Shown one piece after another: positions 6,665 to 46,289 of a stretch of 64,000 nt of DNA (positions are counted from its first letter, which is position 1; each line of letters starts with the position of its first letter). The notes beneath the pieces were generated by a model. The model did not search any database. It was not told the origin of the DNA and saw only the letters and a program-made list of their open reading frames with translations. The translations under genes were made by a program, and so were the position numbers. This DNA comes from a phage. Where the stretch lies: the sequence record PZ452596.1; one strand, written 5' to 3'.

Positions 6665-7843
6665 TTAAAAGTATTTTTTAAAACTCATCATAACTTTATC
6701 ATCAACATCATTATCAATCTGTGCAACAAGATAAGATGACAGTTCTACTTCTTGTGGCGCGGATTGAACATTATCAGAATTAAGATATTCACGAATCCAA
6801 GGATATGGATGTTTAACCGGAGCATCGGTAATTGGGCATGGAAGACCGCACTGTTTCATACGAGATACAGTTAAGTAATCAATAAAGCTCCACATGCTAT
6901 TTGTATTTAATCCAGGAACATCGCCATCTTTAAATAAATGAACTGCCCAATCTTTTTCTTGGCGGTTAACTTCCATGAAAATATCAACTGCTTCTTGTTC
7001 ACACTCTTGAGCAATTTTAACCCATTGATCGCCATCAGTACCAGATTGAAGTTGACGAATAATATATTGGGTGCCTTTAAGGTGAAGCTGTTCATCGCGT
7101 GCAATGAACTTCATAATCTTGGCATTACCTTCCATGATTTCCATGTTCTTATGGAAGTTAAAGGTACATGCGAAAGATACATAAAAACGAATAGCTTCCA
7201 ATGCGTTGATTACATGCAAACAGAGGTAAAGAGATTTCATTAGCTCACGCTTCCAATATGTCTCATGCTCAATAGCATCTTCAATAACGTCTTCGTCTGC
7301 ATTAATTTCTTTTTGGTATTCGATATCAGCTTTAGCGTTTTCCCAATAACGAGTTTTAATCAGAACATCATCATAATAACGTCCAATGGATTCAGCACGT
7401 TTCATAATAGCTTCATCTAATACAATTTCATCAAATACCTTCGATGGATCAGTATAAAGATTTCGCATGATATGTGTATATGAACGGCTGTGAATAGTTT
7501 CACTAAAAGTCCATGTAGCAACCCATGTATCAAGGCTTGGGTCTGAAATTAATGACATAAGTACAGCAGACGGTGCACGTCCCTGAATGCTATCTAGAAG
7601 TGATTGATACTTCAAGTTATTAGTAAAAATATCTTGCTGATACTGAGGAAGCTTGTTAAATTGTGCAGCATCCATCATTAAGTTTACTTCTTCAGGCCGC
7701 CAGAAAAATGACAATTGCTTTTCGGTTAAATCTTCAAAAACTTTATGACGTTGAATATCATAACGCGCAATACCAAGACCTGAACCGAAGAACATAGGTT
7801 CTTTTAAAACATCAACTGGATTTGTATTAAAAACTGTGCTCAT
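6665..7843 (-). CDS. nrdB: ribonucleotide reductase small subunit
   Basis: 392 aa, uninterrupted (no group I intron, unlike T4 nrdB). Confidence 0.93.
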   Translation of the reverse strand: MSTVFNTNPVDVLKEPMFFGSGLGIARYDIQRHKVFEDLTEKQLSFFWRPEEVNLMMDAAQFNKLPQYQQDIFTNNLKYQSLLDSIQGRAPSAVLMSLISDPSLDTWVATWTFSETIHSRSYTHIMRNLYTDPSKVFDEIVLDEAIMKRAESIGRYYDDVLIKTRYWENAKADIEYQKEINADEDVIEDAIEHETYWKRELMKSLYLCLHVINALEAIRFYVSFACTFNFHKNMEIMEGNAKIMKFIARDEQLHLKGTQYIIRQLQSGTDGDQWVKIAQECEQEAVDIFMEVNRQEKDWAVHLFKDGDVPGLNTNSMWSFIDYLTVSRMKQCGLPCPITDAPVKHPYPWIREYLNSDNVQSAPQEVELSSYLVAQIDNDVDDKVMMSFKKYF

Positions 7844-39124: not shown

Positions 39125-39165
39125 CAATTAATTATACCACATCCTTGTGGTAAAGTAAACTACTG
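39125..39165 (-). promoter_or_regulatory. early promoter upstream of rIIA.1/rIIA
   Basis: minus strand GTTTAC -16- GGTATAAT. Confidence 0.5.
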
Positions 39166-40980
39166 GCTCATCCATTCTTTACGAAGGTCAGCATTATCTC
39201 CCATGAGCATTTCAAAAAGCTCTTTCCAGTTCTCAGGAAGTTTAACAACATCATATACTGGATTTTGAATCATCTCACGATATTCAGATTTTTCCAAAGA
39301 GCCAAGTCCCTTAATATAACGGATACTATGTTTAGGTAGAGCATCTTTAGCACTCTCATATTCAGCGACTGTATAAAACCATTCTTGTTTTTTACCGACC
39401 TGAGCGATGATTACAGGAGTTTTGACAAAGCGAATTCGTCCTTGCTCAAACAATTCTGGCCAATTACTAAAAAATCCGAGCAGAGAAGGATAAATGCTTC
39501 CTAAACCATCATGGTCAGCATCAGTCATAATAGCAATATTATGATAATTCAAGTTTTCAGCTTTTTCACCTAGAACTAAACCCGTGATTGCGCAAATATC
39601 AAACAGTTCTTTGTTTTTAAGCATATCAGCATATGACATACCCCAACTGTTGAGAACTTTACCACGCAATGGATAACCACCATGAAGTTCTTTATCACGA
39701 ACATCAATAAGATATCCGATAGCAGAATCACCCTCAGTCAAGAAAAGAGTAGTGTCAGCATCTTTACCACAAAGATTCGCTTTAATATGTTTATGAACCT
39801 TAGCTTTAGAAGCCTTTTTAGCTGCTTTAGTTTCTGCTGCTTTTTCTGCTGCCAATTTACGAGCTAATGCTGCTTCAATAATTGGCATCAAAATTGCTTC
39901 ATTATTTAGAATAGCGCGTGAAATCTTTTTAGCATCAAGTTGAATATGACTACGGATTTCACCAAATGGAGAAGTCAAACGCTCTTTAGTTTGAGAATCA
40001 AATCGCATGTTTTTCATATCACGAACAAACATAACGATAGTCAAACATTCTTTGACACGTGCTTTAGTTACATCAATTTTGAACTTACGTTTGATTTGTG
40101 GAATAAGGTCTTCACAAATATCATCCATAACACAGTCAATGTGATGGCCACCATTCTTAGTGTGAATGTTATTCACATAAGTTAATTGACGAAATCCATC
40201 CGGTGAACGACCAACCGCAATAGAACAATTTTCTTGTTCTTGAACAATAGCATGTTCATCATACTGTCGTGCATATTTCTTAAAATTGCCCTGAACCTTT
40301 TTACCATTAAAGGTAAATTGAATATCAGGATAAACAACAGCAAGTGTCTGGAGACGATCCAGTGTAATGTCAAGATAAACTTGGGACAGCTCATTAGTTT
40401 CAAATGACATAAAATCAGGAATGAAAGTAACACGAGTTCCTTTCCATTTTCCAGGAATATCTTCCCATGATTTATTTTCCATGCCATTTGAACAACGAAC
40501 TACAATATTATTTTGACCATCACCAGTTTCACCGACAAACATCACAGAAAAAATGTTTGTCAAACTAGAACCAACACCATTCATACCACCGGTGACGCGT
40601 TCTTTATCATCACCGAAGTTACCACCTGCTTTTGGAATAGTCCACGCAGCAACAGGACCAGGAATTTCTTCACCTGTAGGTGTTTTAACCATCGCCTGTG
40701 GAATACCGCGACCGTTATCTTCAACTGTTACCTGATTATTTTTAATAGTAACATTAATTTTATTTGCGAATTTAAACTTAGTACGAATACCTTCATCTAC
40801 TGAGTTATCAATAATTTCATCAATAAGCTTAACAAGACCAGGTACATACTGAACACTTTCCCATTTACCAAACAGAAAGCGCTCATGCATTTCATTAGCA
40901 GAAGAGCCAATATACATGCCGCTACGCTTTTTGATATGTTCAATATCGCTCAGAATTTTAATTTCATTCTTAATCATCAC
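39160..40980 (-). CDS. 39: DNA topoisomerase II large (ATPase) subunit, unsplit gene 39
   Basis: 606-aa GyrB-like ORF in one frame; in T4 this protein is split into genes 39 and 60. Confidence 0.9.
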   Translation of the reverse strand: MMIKNEIKILSDIEHIKKRSGMYIGSSANEMHERFLFGKWESVQYVPGLVKLIDEIIDNSVDEGIRTKFKFANKINVTIKNNQVTVEDNGRGIPQAMVKTPTGEEIPGPVAAWTIPKAGGNFGDDKERVTGGMNGVGSSLTNIFSVMFVGETGDGQNNIVVRCSNGMENKSWEDIPGKWKGTRVTFIPDFMSFETNELSQVYLDITLDRLQTLAVVYPDIQFTFNGKKVQGNFKKYARQYDEHAIVQEQENCSIAVGRSPDGFRQLTYVNNIHTKNGGHHIDCVMDDICEDLIPQIKRKFKIDVTKARVKECLTIVMFVRDMKNMRFDSQTKERLTSPFGEIRSHIQLDAKKISRAILNNEAILMPIIEAALARKLAAEKAAETKAAKKASKAKVHKHIKANLCGKDADTTLFLTEGDSAIGYLIDVRDKELHGGYPLRGKVLNSWGMSYADMLKNKELFDICAITGLVLGEKAENLNYHNIAIMTDADHDGLGSIYPSLLGFFSNWPELFEQGRIRFVKTPVIIAQVGKKQEWFYTVAEYESAKDALPKHSIRYIKGLGSLEKSEYREMIQNPVYDVVKLPENWKELFEMLMGDNADLRKEWMSQ

Positions 40981-41311: not shown

Positions 41312-41683
41312 TCACTTAAATTTAATGGCTTGAAGAAGACTAATAACTCCCAAGCGACTTCTTTCATCTTTAACTGTAAAAGAAAGAGGGTCACCAGACT
41401 TCATAGTAATAGTGCATTCAAAATCAAAACCTTCGGGAACTTCTTCGAATAGGTCAAATTCTTCATCATAAATTAGAACACTACTTTGCAGACTGTGAAG
41501 AGTTTTTCCAGCATTTCCAGATGCTGTACCAATCATTGTAACATTATGACCTTTCATATCTTCAACGATAAATTCACTAGTCAATATTACAGCATTAATA
41601 GAACTATTCCTATTACTAGCAGAAAGTAGAAATTTCTGTTCTTCACCTTCGCGAATACGATATTTCTTACCCATTTTAAACAT
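41312..41683 (-). CDS. hypothetical protein (gene 39 upstream cluster)
   Basis: 123-aa ORF. Confidence 0.5.
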   Translation of the reverse strand: MFKMGKKYRIREGEEQKFLLSASNRNSSINAVILTSEFIVEDMKGHNVTMIGTASGNAGKTLHSLQSSVLIYDEEFDLFEEVPEGFDFECTITMKSGDPLSFTVKDERSRLGVISLLQAIKFK

Positions 41684-42512: not shown

Positions 42513-42782
42513 TTAATTGAACAGTGGAGCGATACGTTTCAGAAGAGTAGCAGCACCTTTGGCAAATTTTACATCATGAAAAACAGTTTCTTCTTCCGTT
42601 ACAACACGAGCTTTAATGTTTTCACAATCCCAATTTTTGCGAACAATCTTCAAAAGCTGCAGTAAATCTTTACATTCAGCAATATCGATAACACATCCAC
42701 GAGAATCTTCCATTATCGCACGATAACCGTAAGCCATACCATAATCATTGAAAGATTGCTCGATGATAATTAAATTTTCCAT
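42513..42782 (-). CDS. hypothetical protein
   Basis: start at MENLIIIEQ; track ORF start overlaps the upstream early promoter. Confidence 0.45.
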   Translation of the reverse strand: MENLIIIEQSFNDYGMAYGYRAIMEDSRGCVIDIAECKDLLQLLKIVRKNWDCENIKARVVTEEETVFHDVKFAKGAATLLKRIAPLFN

Positions 42783-42804
42783 TTTATTCTCCAAGTTTTT
42801 CTGT

Positions 42805-42870
42805 ATCAGTAGTTGATATTGATATAGTACCATAATCAACTACTGATGTATATAGTTTTATGAAAAAAAT
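42805..42870 (-). promoter_or_regulatory. T4-type early promoter (repeat family copy, diverged)
   Basis: shares CAGTAGTTGATA...TAGTACC core with other copies. Confidence 0.4.
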
Positions 42871-42888
42871 TTTAAACTTTATGCAAAT

Positions 42889-43308
42889 TTATGCTAAAGC
42901 TGCTTCGCACCATTTTTTAATTTGGAATTCAGGAACTACCATGAACTGGCCTGCAAAAACAATATTGTAGAGCTTGACACCATCTTCTACCCAACGGTCC
43001 GAAATAAAACCAGCGACTTGATTCGTTGTCCATGGAGTTCCATCTGTTGCCGCCGCAATTGTGAATTTATGGTCTTTTACAACTAAAACTGAAGAACAAA
43101 GTTTCCATTTAAATGCGCTTTCTTCTGGCTCAATGAACTGACTTGAGACATAACCAATGTTACCATCAGCGTCACGAACTTTAACCTCGTTACGACCAAA
43201 AACTGGATCACTTACAGAAAGAACTTCAACCAGCTTTCCTGCAACTTTAGAACGAGAAGCAACGGATACATATACGTAATCACCAGTAGAGAGATTTACA
43301 ATATTCAT
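42889..43308 (-). CDS. MotB-region paralog 1
   Basis: 139 aa; shares SRSKVAGKLVEV N-terminal motif and GFISDRWVEDGVKLYNIVF C-terminal motif with next ORF. Confidence 0.5.
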   Translation of the reverse strand: MNIVNLSTGDYVYVSVASRSKVAGKLVEVLSVSDPVFGRNEVKVRDADGNIGYVSSQFIEPEESAFKWKLCSSVLVVKDHKFTIAAATDGTPWTTNQVAGFISDRWVEDGVKLYNIVFAGQFMVVPEFQIKKWCEAALA

Positions 43309-43317
43309 AATAATTCC

Positions 43318-43836
43318 TTAAGCTTTACGAGGAGAAGCATAACGAGTGATTTCAGATTCTTCAACAACCCGGAAGTCACCTAAGAATACGATATTGTAGA
43401 GCTTTTCACCATCTTCAACCCATTGGTCTGTGATGAAGCCACACATCCTATCAGTTTTACTTGGACCAGCGAAATCATCAATATAATCGAATTCTTCATC
43501 AGTTACAAATTCAACGCCTTTACACAACGCCCATTTAAATTGTGCATTAGACTCAGTGGATTCAACTTCTTCAACAGAAGCAAAATGAGAGCTAACACGA
43601 GTTTCCAGAAATTTAGGACTTACGTAAGCGTACTGAGTTTCAGTTTTTCCAGAACTAGGAATGATTCGAACTTTAACTTCTTTAACACGACCAGTACCAT
43701 TAGTACGAAGTCCTACCACTTCAACTAGACGACCTGCAGCTTTAGAACGAGATGCAGACGATACACGCTTAATTTCACCGATAGTAATCATAATTTTTCT
43801 CTCTTTGTTGTTAAGATTTATACTCCGCAGGACCAT
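43318..43836 (-). CDS. MotB-region paralog 2 (MotB-like by position and size)
   Basis: 172 aa; SRSKAAGRLVEV and GFITDQWVEDGEKLYNIVF motifs. Confidence 0.5.
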   Translation of the reverse strand: MVLRSINLNNKERKIMITIGEIKRVSSASRSKAAGRLVEVVGLRTNGTGRVKEVKVRIIPSSGKTETQYAYVSPKFLETRVSSHFASVEEVESTESNAQFKWALCKGVEFVTDEEFDYIDDFAGPSKTDRMCGFITDQWVEDGEKLYNIVFLGDFRVVEESEITRYASPRKA

Positions 43837-43863
43837 TATACTCTGGTCCCAAGAGTTTGTAAA

Positions 43864-44301
43864 TTAGCTTACACGAACATTAATCACTGCGCTGCGAGGA
43901 ACTACAGAGTACTCTCCAGCATGAACTACGTTCAGAAGTTCAACACCATCTTCAATCCACTGATCAGTCACCCATCCACCCACAGGATTCGCGAATGGAC
44001 GACGAATATAAACTGCCTTACACAGCAGATCAGTTGGATCTTCAGGTTTTTCAATTTCTGTCAATAGACTAAAATCTTTTTCATAAATAATAAGCGATGA
44101 TACCATTCCATAATAGTTTCTAATTTCAATATACATCATACCGATAAGAATTCCGCTATTAACACTAATAACAGTAAAAGGATATCCGCCAGTTAAACCA
44201 AGAAGTTCACAAAACTTATTATGAGCTGTATTAGACAGTACCGAAAAATTCTTAATTTCATCAAATTTTTTCAATTGATAAACAGCATTATTTTTAATCA
44301 T
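43864..44301 (-). CDS. MotB-region paralog 3 (C-terminal domain only)
   Basis: 145 aa; C-terminal GGWVTDQWIEDGVELLNVVHAGEYSVVP homologous to the two preceding ORFs. Confidence 0.5.
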   Translation of the reverse strand: MIKNNAVYQLKKFDEIKNFSVLSNTAHNKFCELLGLTGGYPFTVISVNSGILIGMMYIEIRNYYGMVSSLIIYEKDFSLLTEIEKPEDPTDLLCKAVYIRRPFANPVGGWVTDQWIEDGVELLNVVHAGEYSVVPRSAVINVRVS

Positions 44302-44829: not shown

Positions 44830-44880
44830 TAGCTATAGTGTTATAATACCATAACTAACCGAGGAAGTAAACAACTTTTT
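44830..44880 (-). promoter_or_regulatory. early promoter candidate downstream of dexA
   Basis: minus strand GTTTAC with GGTATTATAAC -10 region. Confidence 0.4.
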
Positions 44881-45562
44881 ATCGTTTTGTTGGAAGAGAC
44901 AGAGGATCGCACTCTTCCTCTGACGGAGCATCTTCAAGACCCATAGCGTATCGCAAAGCATACTTCATCATCAGGATGTCTTTCGCGCAGTCATGAATAG
45001 AATCATGTGCAACGAATCCATCTAAAGTTCCTTTTGGAAGAGGACACGTGGTCATATCACGAACAAGCAGAAGTGCTTCAATTCTGGTACGAATATCACG
45101 CTGATTCCAGAATTTACAAGGTTCTAACTTAAATGTATCAAGCTCATTCTCGGAAACGCCGTTAAGACGTTGAATATCGCGAATGAGATCGACTAAAATT
45201 GGAAAATCAAACGACATTCCACGGCACCAACCTTGAGATTTCCAAGGATCGATGTTATGTGCATTGATGTAATCATTAAATTTTGCAATACCATCGATAG
45301 TGCTTACATCTTCATCGGATGGTGCAATATTTTTTCGAGCTTCAGGAGACTGGTTTTTCCACCATTCGATAGTGCTTTTAGTAAAAAGACGATGTCCTTT
45401 TTGGCTTTTTAAATCAAATTTGATTTTAATGCCACGTGAAACTAATTCATCAAATGTTTCAACAACTTCTGGGTTAGGGTCAAAGGCAATAACAGCCAAA
45501 TCAATAACAGCTGCTTTTTCACCACTTCCCATTGTTTCAAAATCTATAATAAAATCAAACAT
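44879..45562 (-). CDS. dexA: exonuclease A (DnaQ-like 3'-5' exonuclease)
   Basis: 227 aa, DFETMG exonuclease motif at N-terminus; matches T4 DexA. Confidence 0.9.
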   Translation of the reverse strand: MFDFIIDFETMGSGEKAAVIDLAVIAFDPNPEVVETFDELVSRGIKIKFDLKSQKGHRLFTKSTIEWWKNQSPEARKNIAPSDEDVSTIDGIAKFNDYINAHNIDPWKSQGWCRGMSFDFPILVDLIRDIQRLNGVSENELDTFKLEPCKFWNQRDIRTRIEALLLVRDMTTCPLPKGTLDGFVAHDSIHDCAKDILMMKYALRYAMGLEDAPSEEECDPLSLPTKR

Positions 45563-45819
45563 TAAACTTTCCTCGCTAAATCGCGAATTTGGCCTACAGT
45601 ATAGTCTTGAATATAAACTTTATTAATAGGCTCATCAATAAATTTTGCCATAGATTCAATATCTTTTTGTATCTTTTCAAGACTGTATACTATCTTTGAA
45701 GCTTTTTCACGAATAGTAATATTTTCAGGACCTGGATTTTCTTCAATGACAGCTTTAACATTTGTCATAAGAGATTTAAACTGGTACCAACTCAACTCAA
45801 TCATTAATAATCGCCTCAT
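45562..45819 (-). CDS. hypothetical protein, paralog A (dexA-dda spacer)
   Basis: 85 aa; similar to adjacent 86-aa ORF. Confidence 0.45.
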   Translation of the reverse strand: MRRLLMIELSWYQFKSLMTNVKAVIEENPGPENITIREKASKIVYSLEKIQKDIESMAKFIDEPINKVYIQDYTVGQIRDLARKV

Positions 45820-46057
45820 AAAGATAGCTAATTTCGCCTAAAACGTAATCATTGATTGTAACAGTTTTCACTTCACCACAAAAGAATTCTAACGCAATTA
45901 AATCTCGTTCAATTTCTTCTAATTGAAGCATCAACTTACTAGATTCAATTTTTACAGTTTCACGATTTTTACCATGAGCAATTTCATAAATTTCGCTAAC
46001 TTTATCCTGAAGAAGATAAAACTGATCTTTAGTTATTTCCACGAATAGCTTCCTCAA
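45797..46057 (-). CDS. hypothetical protein, paralog B (dexA-dda spacer)
   Basis: 86 aa; aligns with paralog A (MRxL..E..QF..L...V..I.E...NDY..G.I). Confidence 0.45.
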   Translation of the reverse strand: MRKLFVEITKDQFYLLQDKVSEIYEIAHGKNRETVKIESSKLMLQLEEIERDLIALEFFCGEVKTVTINDYVLGEISYLYEAIIND

Positions 46058-46289
46058 ATTTAATTAGTAATTTACAGACACTTTCATCTAGTGTAATTAC
46101 CGTATCTGTATTACTGTGATATGATTGTTTTTCAATTCGTTTAATTGCTAATATAGTATCACTTATAAGATAAAGCTTATGAAGGAGCTCAGCTCCTGTT
46201 ATCATAACATTAAGATTATCTTGCTTATTAGTATGCTTCCTTATACCATCTATTAGACGATTTAAATATTTTGAATTGATGTTAATCAT
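46029..46289 (-). CDS. hypothetical protein (dexA-dda spacer)
   Basis: 86-aa ORF. Confidence 0.45.
   Translation of the reverse strand: MININSKYLNRLIDGIRKHTNKQDNLNVMITGAELLHKLYLISDTILAIKRIEKQSYHSNTDTVITLDESVCKLLIKFEEAIRGNN

Follow-up and report, generated by a model that had tools for sequence, protein, structure and literature searches.

Which genes are the three short, adjacent open reading frames (ORFs) that share a C-terminal motif in the early region of a T4-like phage, and what can be said of their origin and function? The question was raised by an earlier note, made from the letters of a 64,000-nucleotide stretch of phage DNA (record PZ452596.1; "the window" below is this whole stretch), in which the ORFs, here ORF1, ORF2 and ORF3, were described as a tandem triplet of paralogous genes. 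The trio consists, with near certainty, of motB.1 (ORF3), motB (ORF2) and a second motB paralogue that we call motB' (ORF1), early MotB-family genes of T4-like phages. This identification is based on Pfam and PHROG matches, on 100% DNA identity to phage RB27 with its RefSeq gene names, and on the synteny with T4. The recognition of the genes and of their paralogy is a correct rediscovery, as the genes were already annotated in RB27 and the relationship between MotB and MotB.1 had already been published (PMC7827196).

Three MotB-family genes between dexA and cef

The three ORFs were found adjacent to each other, all on the minus strand, as the earlier note had it. Alignment showed the C-terminal core G-[FW]-[IV]-[ST]-D-[QR]-W-[VI]-E-D-G-x-x-L-x-N-[IV]-V in the three proteins, and the motifs SRSK-x-AG-[KR]-LVEV and FKW-x-LC in both ORF1 and ORF2, also as described. 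A six-frame regular-expression scan of the window detected no further copy of the core, so that its occurrences are three in total. By BLASTP, ORF1 and ORF2 were similar over their full length (E=1e-29, 40% identity, 154 columns), ORF1 and ORF3 over a 32-residue core (E=2e-11, 53% identity), and ORF2 and ORF3 with E=4e-11. The scores against the Pfam family PF17613 (motB) were 72.1 bits for ORF1, 141.6 for ORF2 and 32.7 for ORF3, all of them above the curated gathering threshold of 25 bits for the whole-protein score; ORF2 covered the whole profile, ORF1 most of it, and ORF3 only 36 C-terminal residues (104-139). The MotB-like phrog_1671 was matched by ORF1 (E=9.8e-51), ORF2 (E=2e-68) and ORF3 (E=2.2e-15), and the best PHROG of ORF3 was phrog_2333 (E=6.7e-68). 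At the DNA level the three copies of the core were just 72-74% identical; thus the conservation lies at the protein level. ORF1 and ORF2 both have the two-domain architecture of MotB, with an SRSK-type N-terminal domain followed by the FKW/DQWVEDG C-terminal domain. ORF3 does not have it, because FKW is lacking and its N-terminal half is unrelated to that of MotB.

The significance of the alignment was the check that the earlier note had named, and these values place the shared motifs far beyond chance. It is hardly conceivable that the similarity is a product of chance or composition, or that the ORFs are not genes; the pairwise E-values, the Pfam thresholds, hundreds of orthologues, and the purifying selection and structure models described below rule it out.

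RB27 (Tequatrovirus; NC_025448/KM607000) was 100% identical in DNA to the first 4 kb of the window, to its last 4 kb and to 3.8 kb around the trio, and the window corresponds to positions 128467-165179 of the RB27 record joined to 1-27287. In RefSeq, RB27_010 (ORF1) is labelled "MotB-like transcriptional regulator" and RB27_011 (ORF2) "motB", and RB27_012 (ORF3) carries the note "motB.1". All the genes near the trio are carried by the minus strand, and their order in the window is dda, three small dexA.1/.2-like ORFs, dexA, motB.2, ORF3, ORF2, ORF1, an ORF of 89 amino acids (aa), cef, goF, 39.2, a 123-aa ORF, 39.1 and gene 39. The corresponding order in T4 is dexA-motB.2-motB.1-motB-cef-goF. 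The trio therefore lies between dexA and cef, in the early region of a Tevenvirinae genome, which is the position of the MotB family, and the earlier proposal that it occupies the place where T4 has motB and its neighbours was right, the genes being motB.1, motB and an additional motB paralogue.

The length of 172 aa given previously for the middle ORF had to be corrected, since it is that of the maximal ORF. The RB27 annotation and the start of T4 MotB agree on the ATG at 43791, from which motB encodes 157 aa. The longer form was ruled out, as its ATG (43836-43834) overlaps the -10 hexamer of the motB promoter and the Pfam match begins at residue 16.

A common C-terminal domain and its different partners

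The AlphaFold2 model of full-length motB' (51-sequence alignment) reached a mean predicted local distance difference test score (pLDDT) of 84.9 and consisted of two all-beta domains; for the C-terminal domain modelled separately (residues 66-139, 45-sequence alignment) the pLDDT was 92.4. Both domains are five-stranded, a short 3-10 turn lying before the last strand, and the C-terminal one has the form of an SH3-like barrel. The model of the latter did not agree with the OB-fold of the cold-shock DNA-binding type, for which a helix separating strands 3 and 4 and structural neighbours with OB-folds are expected. The full-length model had the same fold neighbours as the C-terminal domain, together with the KOW domains of NusG and Spt5. 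According to these models, the C-terminal domain looks like an SH3/Tudor-like barrel and not like the OB-fold that has been published. The proteins of the trio would all be small and all-beta, with two domains each. The C-terminal domain would comprise roughly 60-75 residues built round the near-invariant hairpin G-[FW]-[IV]-T-D-Q-W-[VI]-E-D-G-x-x-L-x-N-V-V, and the N-terminal domain of motB and motB', which carries SRSK-x-AG-K-LVEV, would be a second small barrel of the KOW/SH3 type, which fits the published reading. The likeness to the Tudor, chromo, PWWP, BAH and KOW barrels (53BP1 tandem Tudor, PHF19 Tudor, NusG, Spt5 KOW) is one of fold only, with 8-22% sequence identity. No Pfam Tudor, chromo or PWWP family matched the trio at E<=1, neither Pfam nor the profile search revealed a sequence-level relation to Tudor/SH3-like barrel families, and the trio is not placed in the Tudor/royal family.

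When a profile of the three C-terminal domains of the window was compared with 1.84 billion representative proteins, only 26 clusters were retrieved, all of small proteins (43-251 aa) with the same motif at their C-terminus. No relatives of the domain outside the family were found by this search, and a fold search of BFVD (E<=0.001) returned MotB-family proteins only. In several cluster members a MotB.1-type C-terminal domain follows an N-terminal one of the SRSK type, and in the family as a whole the common C-terminal domain is joined to at least three kinds of N-terminal region. Considering the small number of clusters and these mixed combinations, the family is narrow, phage-restricted and assembled by domain shuffling.

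According to a published report, a conserved C-terminal domain is common to MotB and MotB.1, which differ in their N-terminal regions, and both the idea of a duplication and genomes with multiple copies appear in the same work (Patterson-West et al. 2021, PMC7827196). ORF3 agrees with this description. Its C-terminal domain has the form DLLC...GWVTDQWIEDGVELLNVVH...VVPRS that is characteristic of the MotB.1 subfamily (PHROG 2333, Category 2 of Patterson-West 2021), as seen in an alignment with at least 40 MotB.1 proteins; its N-terminal domain is not of the MotB kind, and it is encoded just upstream of motB. It is 81% identical to the intact 143-aa form of T4 MotB.1 (P0120). Homology of the N-terminal half of MotB with that of MotB.1, of which there were signs in a pairwise alignment, was rejected, as the comparison of their profiles (114 and 27 sequences) with hhalign gave a probability of 0.2%. 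In many MotB.1 relatives the match to ORF3 does not begin before residue 67-71; these have other N-terminal regions and total lengths of 101-252 aa. The motB.1 gene would thus be the product of a fusion between the C-terminal barrel of the family and an N-terminal domain of another kind. For this N-terminal domain an LSm-like, five-stranded fold and a relationship with GoF and Frd.2 were described (Kim et al. 2025, PMC12152347); ORF3 is an orthologue of the MotB.1 member of this LSm-like family, and goF is found a few genes downstream in the window.

The T4 reference MotB.1 that has been studied has 119 aa and is devoid of most of the C-terminal barrel, whereas the RB27 protein has 145 aa and an intact barrel. 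In the T4 reference (NC_000866.4, about 7304-7305; compare window 43945-43965) an extra G in the W-I-E-D-G core makes the protein end in ...DQWIGRWR*, and the next frame carries on as EDGVELLNVVHAGEYSVVPRSAVVAILN. The extra G was present only in two copies of the T4 reference record, 13 other records (eleven of T4 or T4T, RB55 and RB59) being one base shorter, and the intact 143-aa form was found on 256 contigs, the 119-aa form on 2. The extra base is probably due to a sequencing error of the reference or to a private mutation. Exact-match scans of IMG/VR were uninformative, as neither the frameshift site nor its corrected form was matched. The 2025 study of MotB.1 cites a size of 13.8 kDa, which is that of the 119-aa form, and its constructs were built on reference coordinates (PMC12152347). 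In the RB69 reference, motB.1 (NC_004928, 8376-8872) shows two single-base insertions relative to intact relatives, resulting in a 132-aa product and a "29-aa peptide"; the latter, the Category 3 protein of Patterson-West 2021, is the out-of-frame end of RB69 motB.1. The frameshifts of both references are apparent artefacts. A different case is the 43-aa protein P0280, formed by the first 13 residues of motB.2 (MKIYRVESSFSIL) and the last 27 of the MotB.1 C-terminal domain, apparently by a deletion that fused motB.2 and motB.1 in some phage.

Origin, age and probable exchange of the motB-motB' pair

The earlier note had explained the trio by local duplication followed by divergence. This holds insofar as ORF1 and ORF2 are full-length paralogues and the window has one extra unit of ~429 nucleotides (nt) with respect to T4; it does not hold in that the event was neither local nor recent, and ORF3 is a paralogue in its C-terminal domain only. 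In the blastn comparison of the window with T4, the 5' part of T4 motB aligned to the 5' part of ORF2 (43604-43791), and the 3' part of T4 motB, with the downstream spacer, matched the corresponding part of ORF1 (42773-42993). What is specific to the window (42994-43603) is longer than what is specific to T4 by about one gene length, and the direct repeats of ORF1 and ORF2 are 429 nt apart. With one extra repeat unit relative to T4, the geometry is, to judge from the alignments, that of a tandem duplication of motB. The last 32 residues of T4 MotB were about equally similar to the motB and the motB' of the window in a count over the protein alignment, and the single motB of T4 can be read either as ancestral or as the re-fusion of a former pair.

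The distribution of the pair was examined by tblastn. With ORF1 as query 774 phage records were matched; 208 of them had a copy with at least 80% identity, and exactly 208 had two matches. With ORF2 the numbers were 738 records, 208 with two matches and 202 with a copy of at least 60% identity. In all 208 carrier records, ~27% of the T4-like records, motB' was accompanied by a second motB; T4 has no motB'. In the Mosigvirus RB69 (NC_004928) the arrangement motB.1, motB and MotB-like gene (RB69p010) is identical to that of RB27, including the 9-nt gap within the pair. The two phages differ in that motB.2 lies downstream of the pair in RB69 and upstream of motB.1 in RB27, which is a Tequatrovirus. 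The 9-nt spacer is shared by five further phages, four Mosigviruses and JK45 (classed as a Tequatrovirus by its record).

The clustering of 132 MotB-type proteins yielded five clades, among which the ORF1-type was the most divergent, with 45-48% identity to all others. The ORF2-type, the T4-type and a large clade of single-copy proteins (JS98, UPEC07, SP18) were 50-55% identical to one another. RB27 MotB was 85% identical to RB69 MotB (P0232) and 46% to T4 MotB. The distances between clades ruled out a recent, lineage-specific duplication, as did the fact that Mosigviruses also have the pair, and for the same reasons the duplication that gave motB and motB' is, on the sequence comparisons, an old one. 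Between RB27 and Mosigviruses the synonymous divergence (dS) was 0.40-0.46 for motB and 0.47-0.68 for motB', compared with more than 2 for the flanking dexA and saturation for cef; in one Mosigvirus the first 64 residues of MotB had no amino acid change with respect to RB27. Taking into account these differences in divergence, the pair looks like a two-gene module that was exchanged between genera. It would have arisen by an old tandem duplication of motB, and would pass from one genus to another as a module with conserved regulatory sequence at its flanks.

In public assemblies we found three chimeric proteins. P0028 combines a T4-type N-terminal half with an ORF1-type C-terminal domain, the junction being at FKWKL; its recurrence in at least three samples, on five contigs in all, speaks against an artefact of assembly. 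In P0029 and P0031 an ORF2-type N-terminal half passes into a C-terminus of the ORF1 type, the junctions being located at FKW and the DQWVEDG core. On its contigs the chimera is the sole motB, located between motB.1 and either cef or the 89-aa ORF. It was also possible to see a T4-like N-terminal half followed by an ORF2-type C-terminal half in some Mosigvirus motB genes. Since the junctions fall on the conserved FKW and DQWVEDG stretches, these act, from the sequences compared, as points of crossover, and a single gene can result from the collapse of the pair. Unequal recombination at them would fuse the pair back into a single chimeric gene.

It could be argued that motB' is a redundant or accessory spare copy in a hyperplastic region, adding dosage or being useful in particular hosts. 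The capacity of the pair to collapse into one chimeric gene is in line with this, and so are the dispensability of the region in T4 (PMC6070864) and the sufficiency of a single motB in about 73% of the T4-like records. In the Mosigvirus vB-Eco-KMB38 (OR525701), codon 93 of motB' is changed from TGG to a stop (W93*) and the gene is annotated with 92 aa, which may be a natural knockout or a sequencing error and, taken as the former, suits a spare copy. However, the motB' orthologues are under strong purifying selection, with a ratio of nonsynonymous to synonymous divergence (dN/dS) of 0.09-0.35 over dS up to 0.7, and their length of 139 aa is constant across two genera, from which it follows that motB' is a functional gene. 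Furthermore, motB' is only 40-46% identical to its partner, so that simple dosage is unlikely, and it was never seen without the partner in complete records. We therefore regard a spare copy as improbable.

The two early-promoter-like sites listed in Table 1 fit TTTACW-N17-TAYWAT, the T4/PST early consensus (PMC4122927), and both are kept in T4, where the motB one is upstream of T4 motB. In the promoter scan the site upstream of motB-motB' had 11/12 consensus matches, and the other is likely to be the putative start of a motB.2-motB.1 transcript. Transcription would probably proceed from two strong early promoters of the sigma-70 type, the first serving motB.2-motB.1 and the second motB-motB'. 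The motB' gene begins 9 nt past the motB stop, behind an AAGGA ribosome-binding site of its own. In T4, motB and motB.1 are expressed early (PMC6070864, PMC7827196, PMC12152347), and we infer early expression of the RB27 genes.

A stem-loop surrounds the -10 hexamer of the motB promoter (RNA fold z -3.6; 0/200 shuffles fold as well). The hairpin downstream of motB' has 20-bp arms and an RNA fold z of -4.9, and the same sequence is found directly downstream of the single motB of T4. No U-run follows this hairpin, which does not support a terminator role; its position is the downstream edge of the variable segment. Both stem-loops are kept in T4 and lie on the borders of the stretch in which T4 and RB27 differ, and they recall the promoter/stem-loop cassettes that were proposed to mediate module shuffling (PMC4122927). 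The motB site is a candidate for the PeSL class of composite promoter/stem-loop cassettes (Arbiol 2010; Comeau 2014), which are described from the borders of variable gene modules and whose promoter consensus both RB27 sites fit. At the motB site the stem-loop overlaps the -10 hexamer, whereas the published element places it differently.

Some neighbouring genes also differ from T4. The T4 counterpart of the 89-aa ORF (phrog_3720), which lies between motB' and cef, retains only the first and last few codons round an internal deletion and is out of frame. The dexA.1 and dexA.2 paralogues (31% identity) form a second tandem set. The third ORF of this set, RB27_017, is absent from T4; its counterpart on a related contig gave a weak match to PF26837, the same Pfam family as dexA.1 and dexA.2. 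The 123-aa ORF between 39.1 and 39.2 has no T4 counterpart, window positions 41321-41680 being unaligned to T4. Gene 39, which encodes the large subunit of topoisomerase II, is a single unbroken ORF in the window, whereas T4 has it split in two, genes 39 and 60 being separated by mobA and 60.1.

Table 1. Positions of the genes, predicted domains and regulatory sequences of the trio, of neighbouring genes and of the chimeric genes (window coordinates, except for the contigs)
Feature	Position	Strand	Description
motB.1 (ORF3)	43864..44301	-	145 aa; RB27_012; phrog_2333, PF17613 in the C-terminal part only, RefSeq note
motB.1 C-terminal MotB-family barrel (predicted)	about 43867-44031	-	within ORF3
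motB (ORF2)	43318..43791	-	157 aa; RB27_011; PF17613 full length, phrog_1671, RefSeq
motB C-terminal barrel, acidic (predicted)	about 43321-43539	-	preceded by an acidic linker and, at the N-terminus, a basic KOW/SH3-like domain that carries SRSK
motB' (ORF1)	42889..43308	-	139 aa; RB27_010; extra MotB-like paralogue; PF17613, phrog_1671
motB' C-terminal barrel (predicted)	42892-43113	-	within ORF1
Early-promoter-like site TTTACT-17-TATTAT	44843..44871	-	upstream of motB.2; promoter scan
Early-promoter-like site TTTACA-17-TATAAT and stem-loop	43822..43863	-	promoter 43863-43835; stem-loop 43822-43856
Long hairpin, 20-nt arms	42805..42847	-	spacer downstream of motB'; inverted repeat
89-aa ORF	42513-42782	-	RB27_009
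dexA.1/dexA.2 tandem set	45562-46289	-	dexA.1 85 aa, dexA.2 86 aa
Third ORF of the dexA.1/dexA.2 set	46029-46289		86 aa; RB27_017
123-aa ORF	41312-41683	-	RB27_005
Gene 39	39160-40980	-	606 aa
Contigs with chimeric motB	L003 1373-1894; L004 4001-4492; L005; L006 37-528		metagenomic and run-assembly contigs

Possible roles of MotB and MotB'

T4 MotB is abundant early in infection, is toxic on overexpression and doubles the burst size; it binds plain and glucosyl-hydroxymethylcytosine DNA without sequence specificity, and in the presence of DNA it copurifies with H-NS and StpA (PMC6070864, PMC7827196). It also alters the footprint of H-NS and brings about the de-repression of about 75 host genes, one third of which belong to the H-NS regulon (PMC7827196), and it was isolated from a complex containing RNA polymerase (PMC6070864). 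The H-NS antagonists T4 Arn and T7 gp5.5 are likewise early, non-essential phage proteins that interfere with H-NS (PMC7827196). These two bind H-NS directly, whereas T4 MotB was seen with H-NS only when DNA was present (PMC7827196), and the likeness is one of function.

By homology to T4 MotB, and with about even odds, the RB27 proteins would accumulate soon after infection and join nucleoid DNA. There the placement of H-NS and StpA on the DNA would shift, leading to a better phage yield. In phages of the RB27/RB69 type the job of MotB would be split between two co-transcribed paralogues that always occur together. For the explanation as a whole, that is, for identity, structure, mechanism and evolution taken together, we estimate a probability of roughly 0.55.

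A key aspect in this respect is the charge of the proteins. T4 MotB, which belongs to the same family (PF17613; Patterson-West et al. 2018, 2021), has the same genomic slot, the upstream promoter and the SRSK/FKW/DQWVEDG two-domain layout in common with RB27 MotB. The latter, at 46% identity, differs from it in its isoelectric point (pI; 5.4 against 9.2), in its acidic C-terminal domain and in being always accompanied by a second paralogue. The net charge of T4 MotB is +6, and RB27 MotB, MotB' and MotB.1 all have a pI of about 5.4. Within RB27 MotB the N-terminal domain has a charge of +4 and the C-terminal domain of -7; in MotB' the corresponding values are -3 and +1. The T4-type clade was the only uniformly basic one, and the largest single-copy clade was acidic, with a mean pI of 5.8.

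Several points weigh against the explanation given above. All three RB27 proteins are acidic and T4 MotB is basic, so that tight non-specific DNA binding may not carry over. The acidic D-Q-W-x-E-D-G, the most conserved motif, is unlikely to be a DNA contact; an invariant core made of acidic and aromatic residues favours a structural or protein-binding role. The knockdown of T4 motB barely alters the phage transcriptome (PMC6070864), the deletion of T4 motB.1 had no phenotype (PMC12152347), and the biological role of the family stays vague. The functions of the RB27 proteins are all assigned by homology, and the fold calls come from predicted models, the profile search having found no solved structure of a relative.

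Considering these points, it is possible, at odds well short of even, that the C-terminal barrel is instead a protein-binding module for one conserved host target, such as H-NS/StpA or RNA polymerase, and that the N-terminal domains supply differing activities. The three genes would then bring three activities to the same host partner, and the DNA binding of T4 MotB would come from its basic N-terminal domain. The acidic and aromatic character of the core motif fits such a module, and so does the near-invariance of the core across all subfamilies while the rest of the proteins has diverged. Both T4-type and RB27-type MotB have a basic N-terminal domain, the charge of the C-terminal domain ranging from +2 to -7, and the latter domain is joined to at least three kinds of N-terminal region; the isolation of MotB from an RNA polymerase-containing complex (PMC6070864) points the same way.

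The strict co-occurrence of MotB and MotB' and the complementary charges of their domains suggest joint or divided roles. A subfunctionalisation, or a heteromer of both proteins, is speculative and has perhaps one chance in four; the heteromer idea comes from co-occurrence and crude charge counts alone. Somewhat more doubtful still is an obligate two-protein system, as a heteromer or as two subfunctionalised halves, that would replace the single basic MotB of T4, with the Tudor/SH3-like C-terminal module predicted from the models docking on a conserved host protein such as H-NS/StpA or RNA polymerase, in place of the DNA-binding OB-fold of the literature.

The value of these results as a discovery is small, since the genes had been annotated and the paralogy of MotB and MotB.1 was known from a 2021 publication, which also covered genomes with additional copies. 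The additions are minor: a predicted SH3/Tudor-like C-terminal domain, the obligate pairing with complementary charges, the chimeric genes and the apparent frameshift artefacts in the motB.1 of T4 and RB69. For the study of the family it is relevant that recent experiments were made with the T4 reference MotB.1, which appears to be truncated by a frameshift, with most of the barrel missing. The basic charge of T4 MotB is atypical for the family, and DNA binding may therefore not be the conserved activity. That motB' does not occur without motB suggests a joint function of the two proteins, which is testable. If true, an obligate pair with a docking module would change the working model of MotB action.

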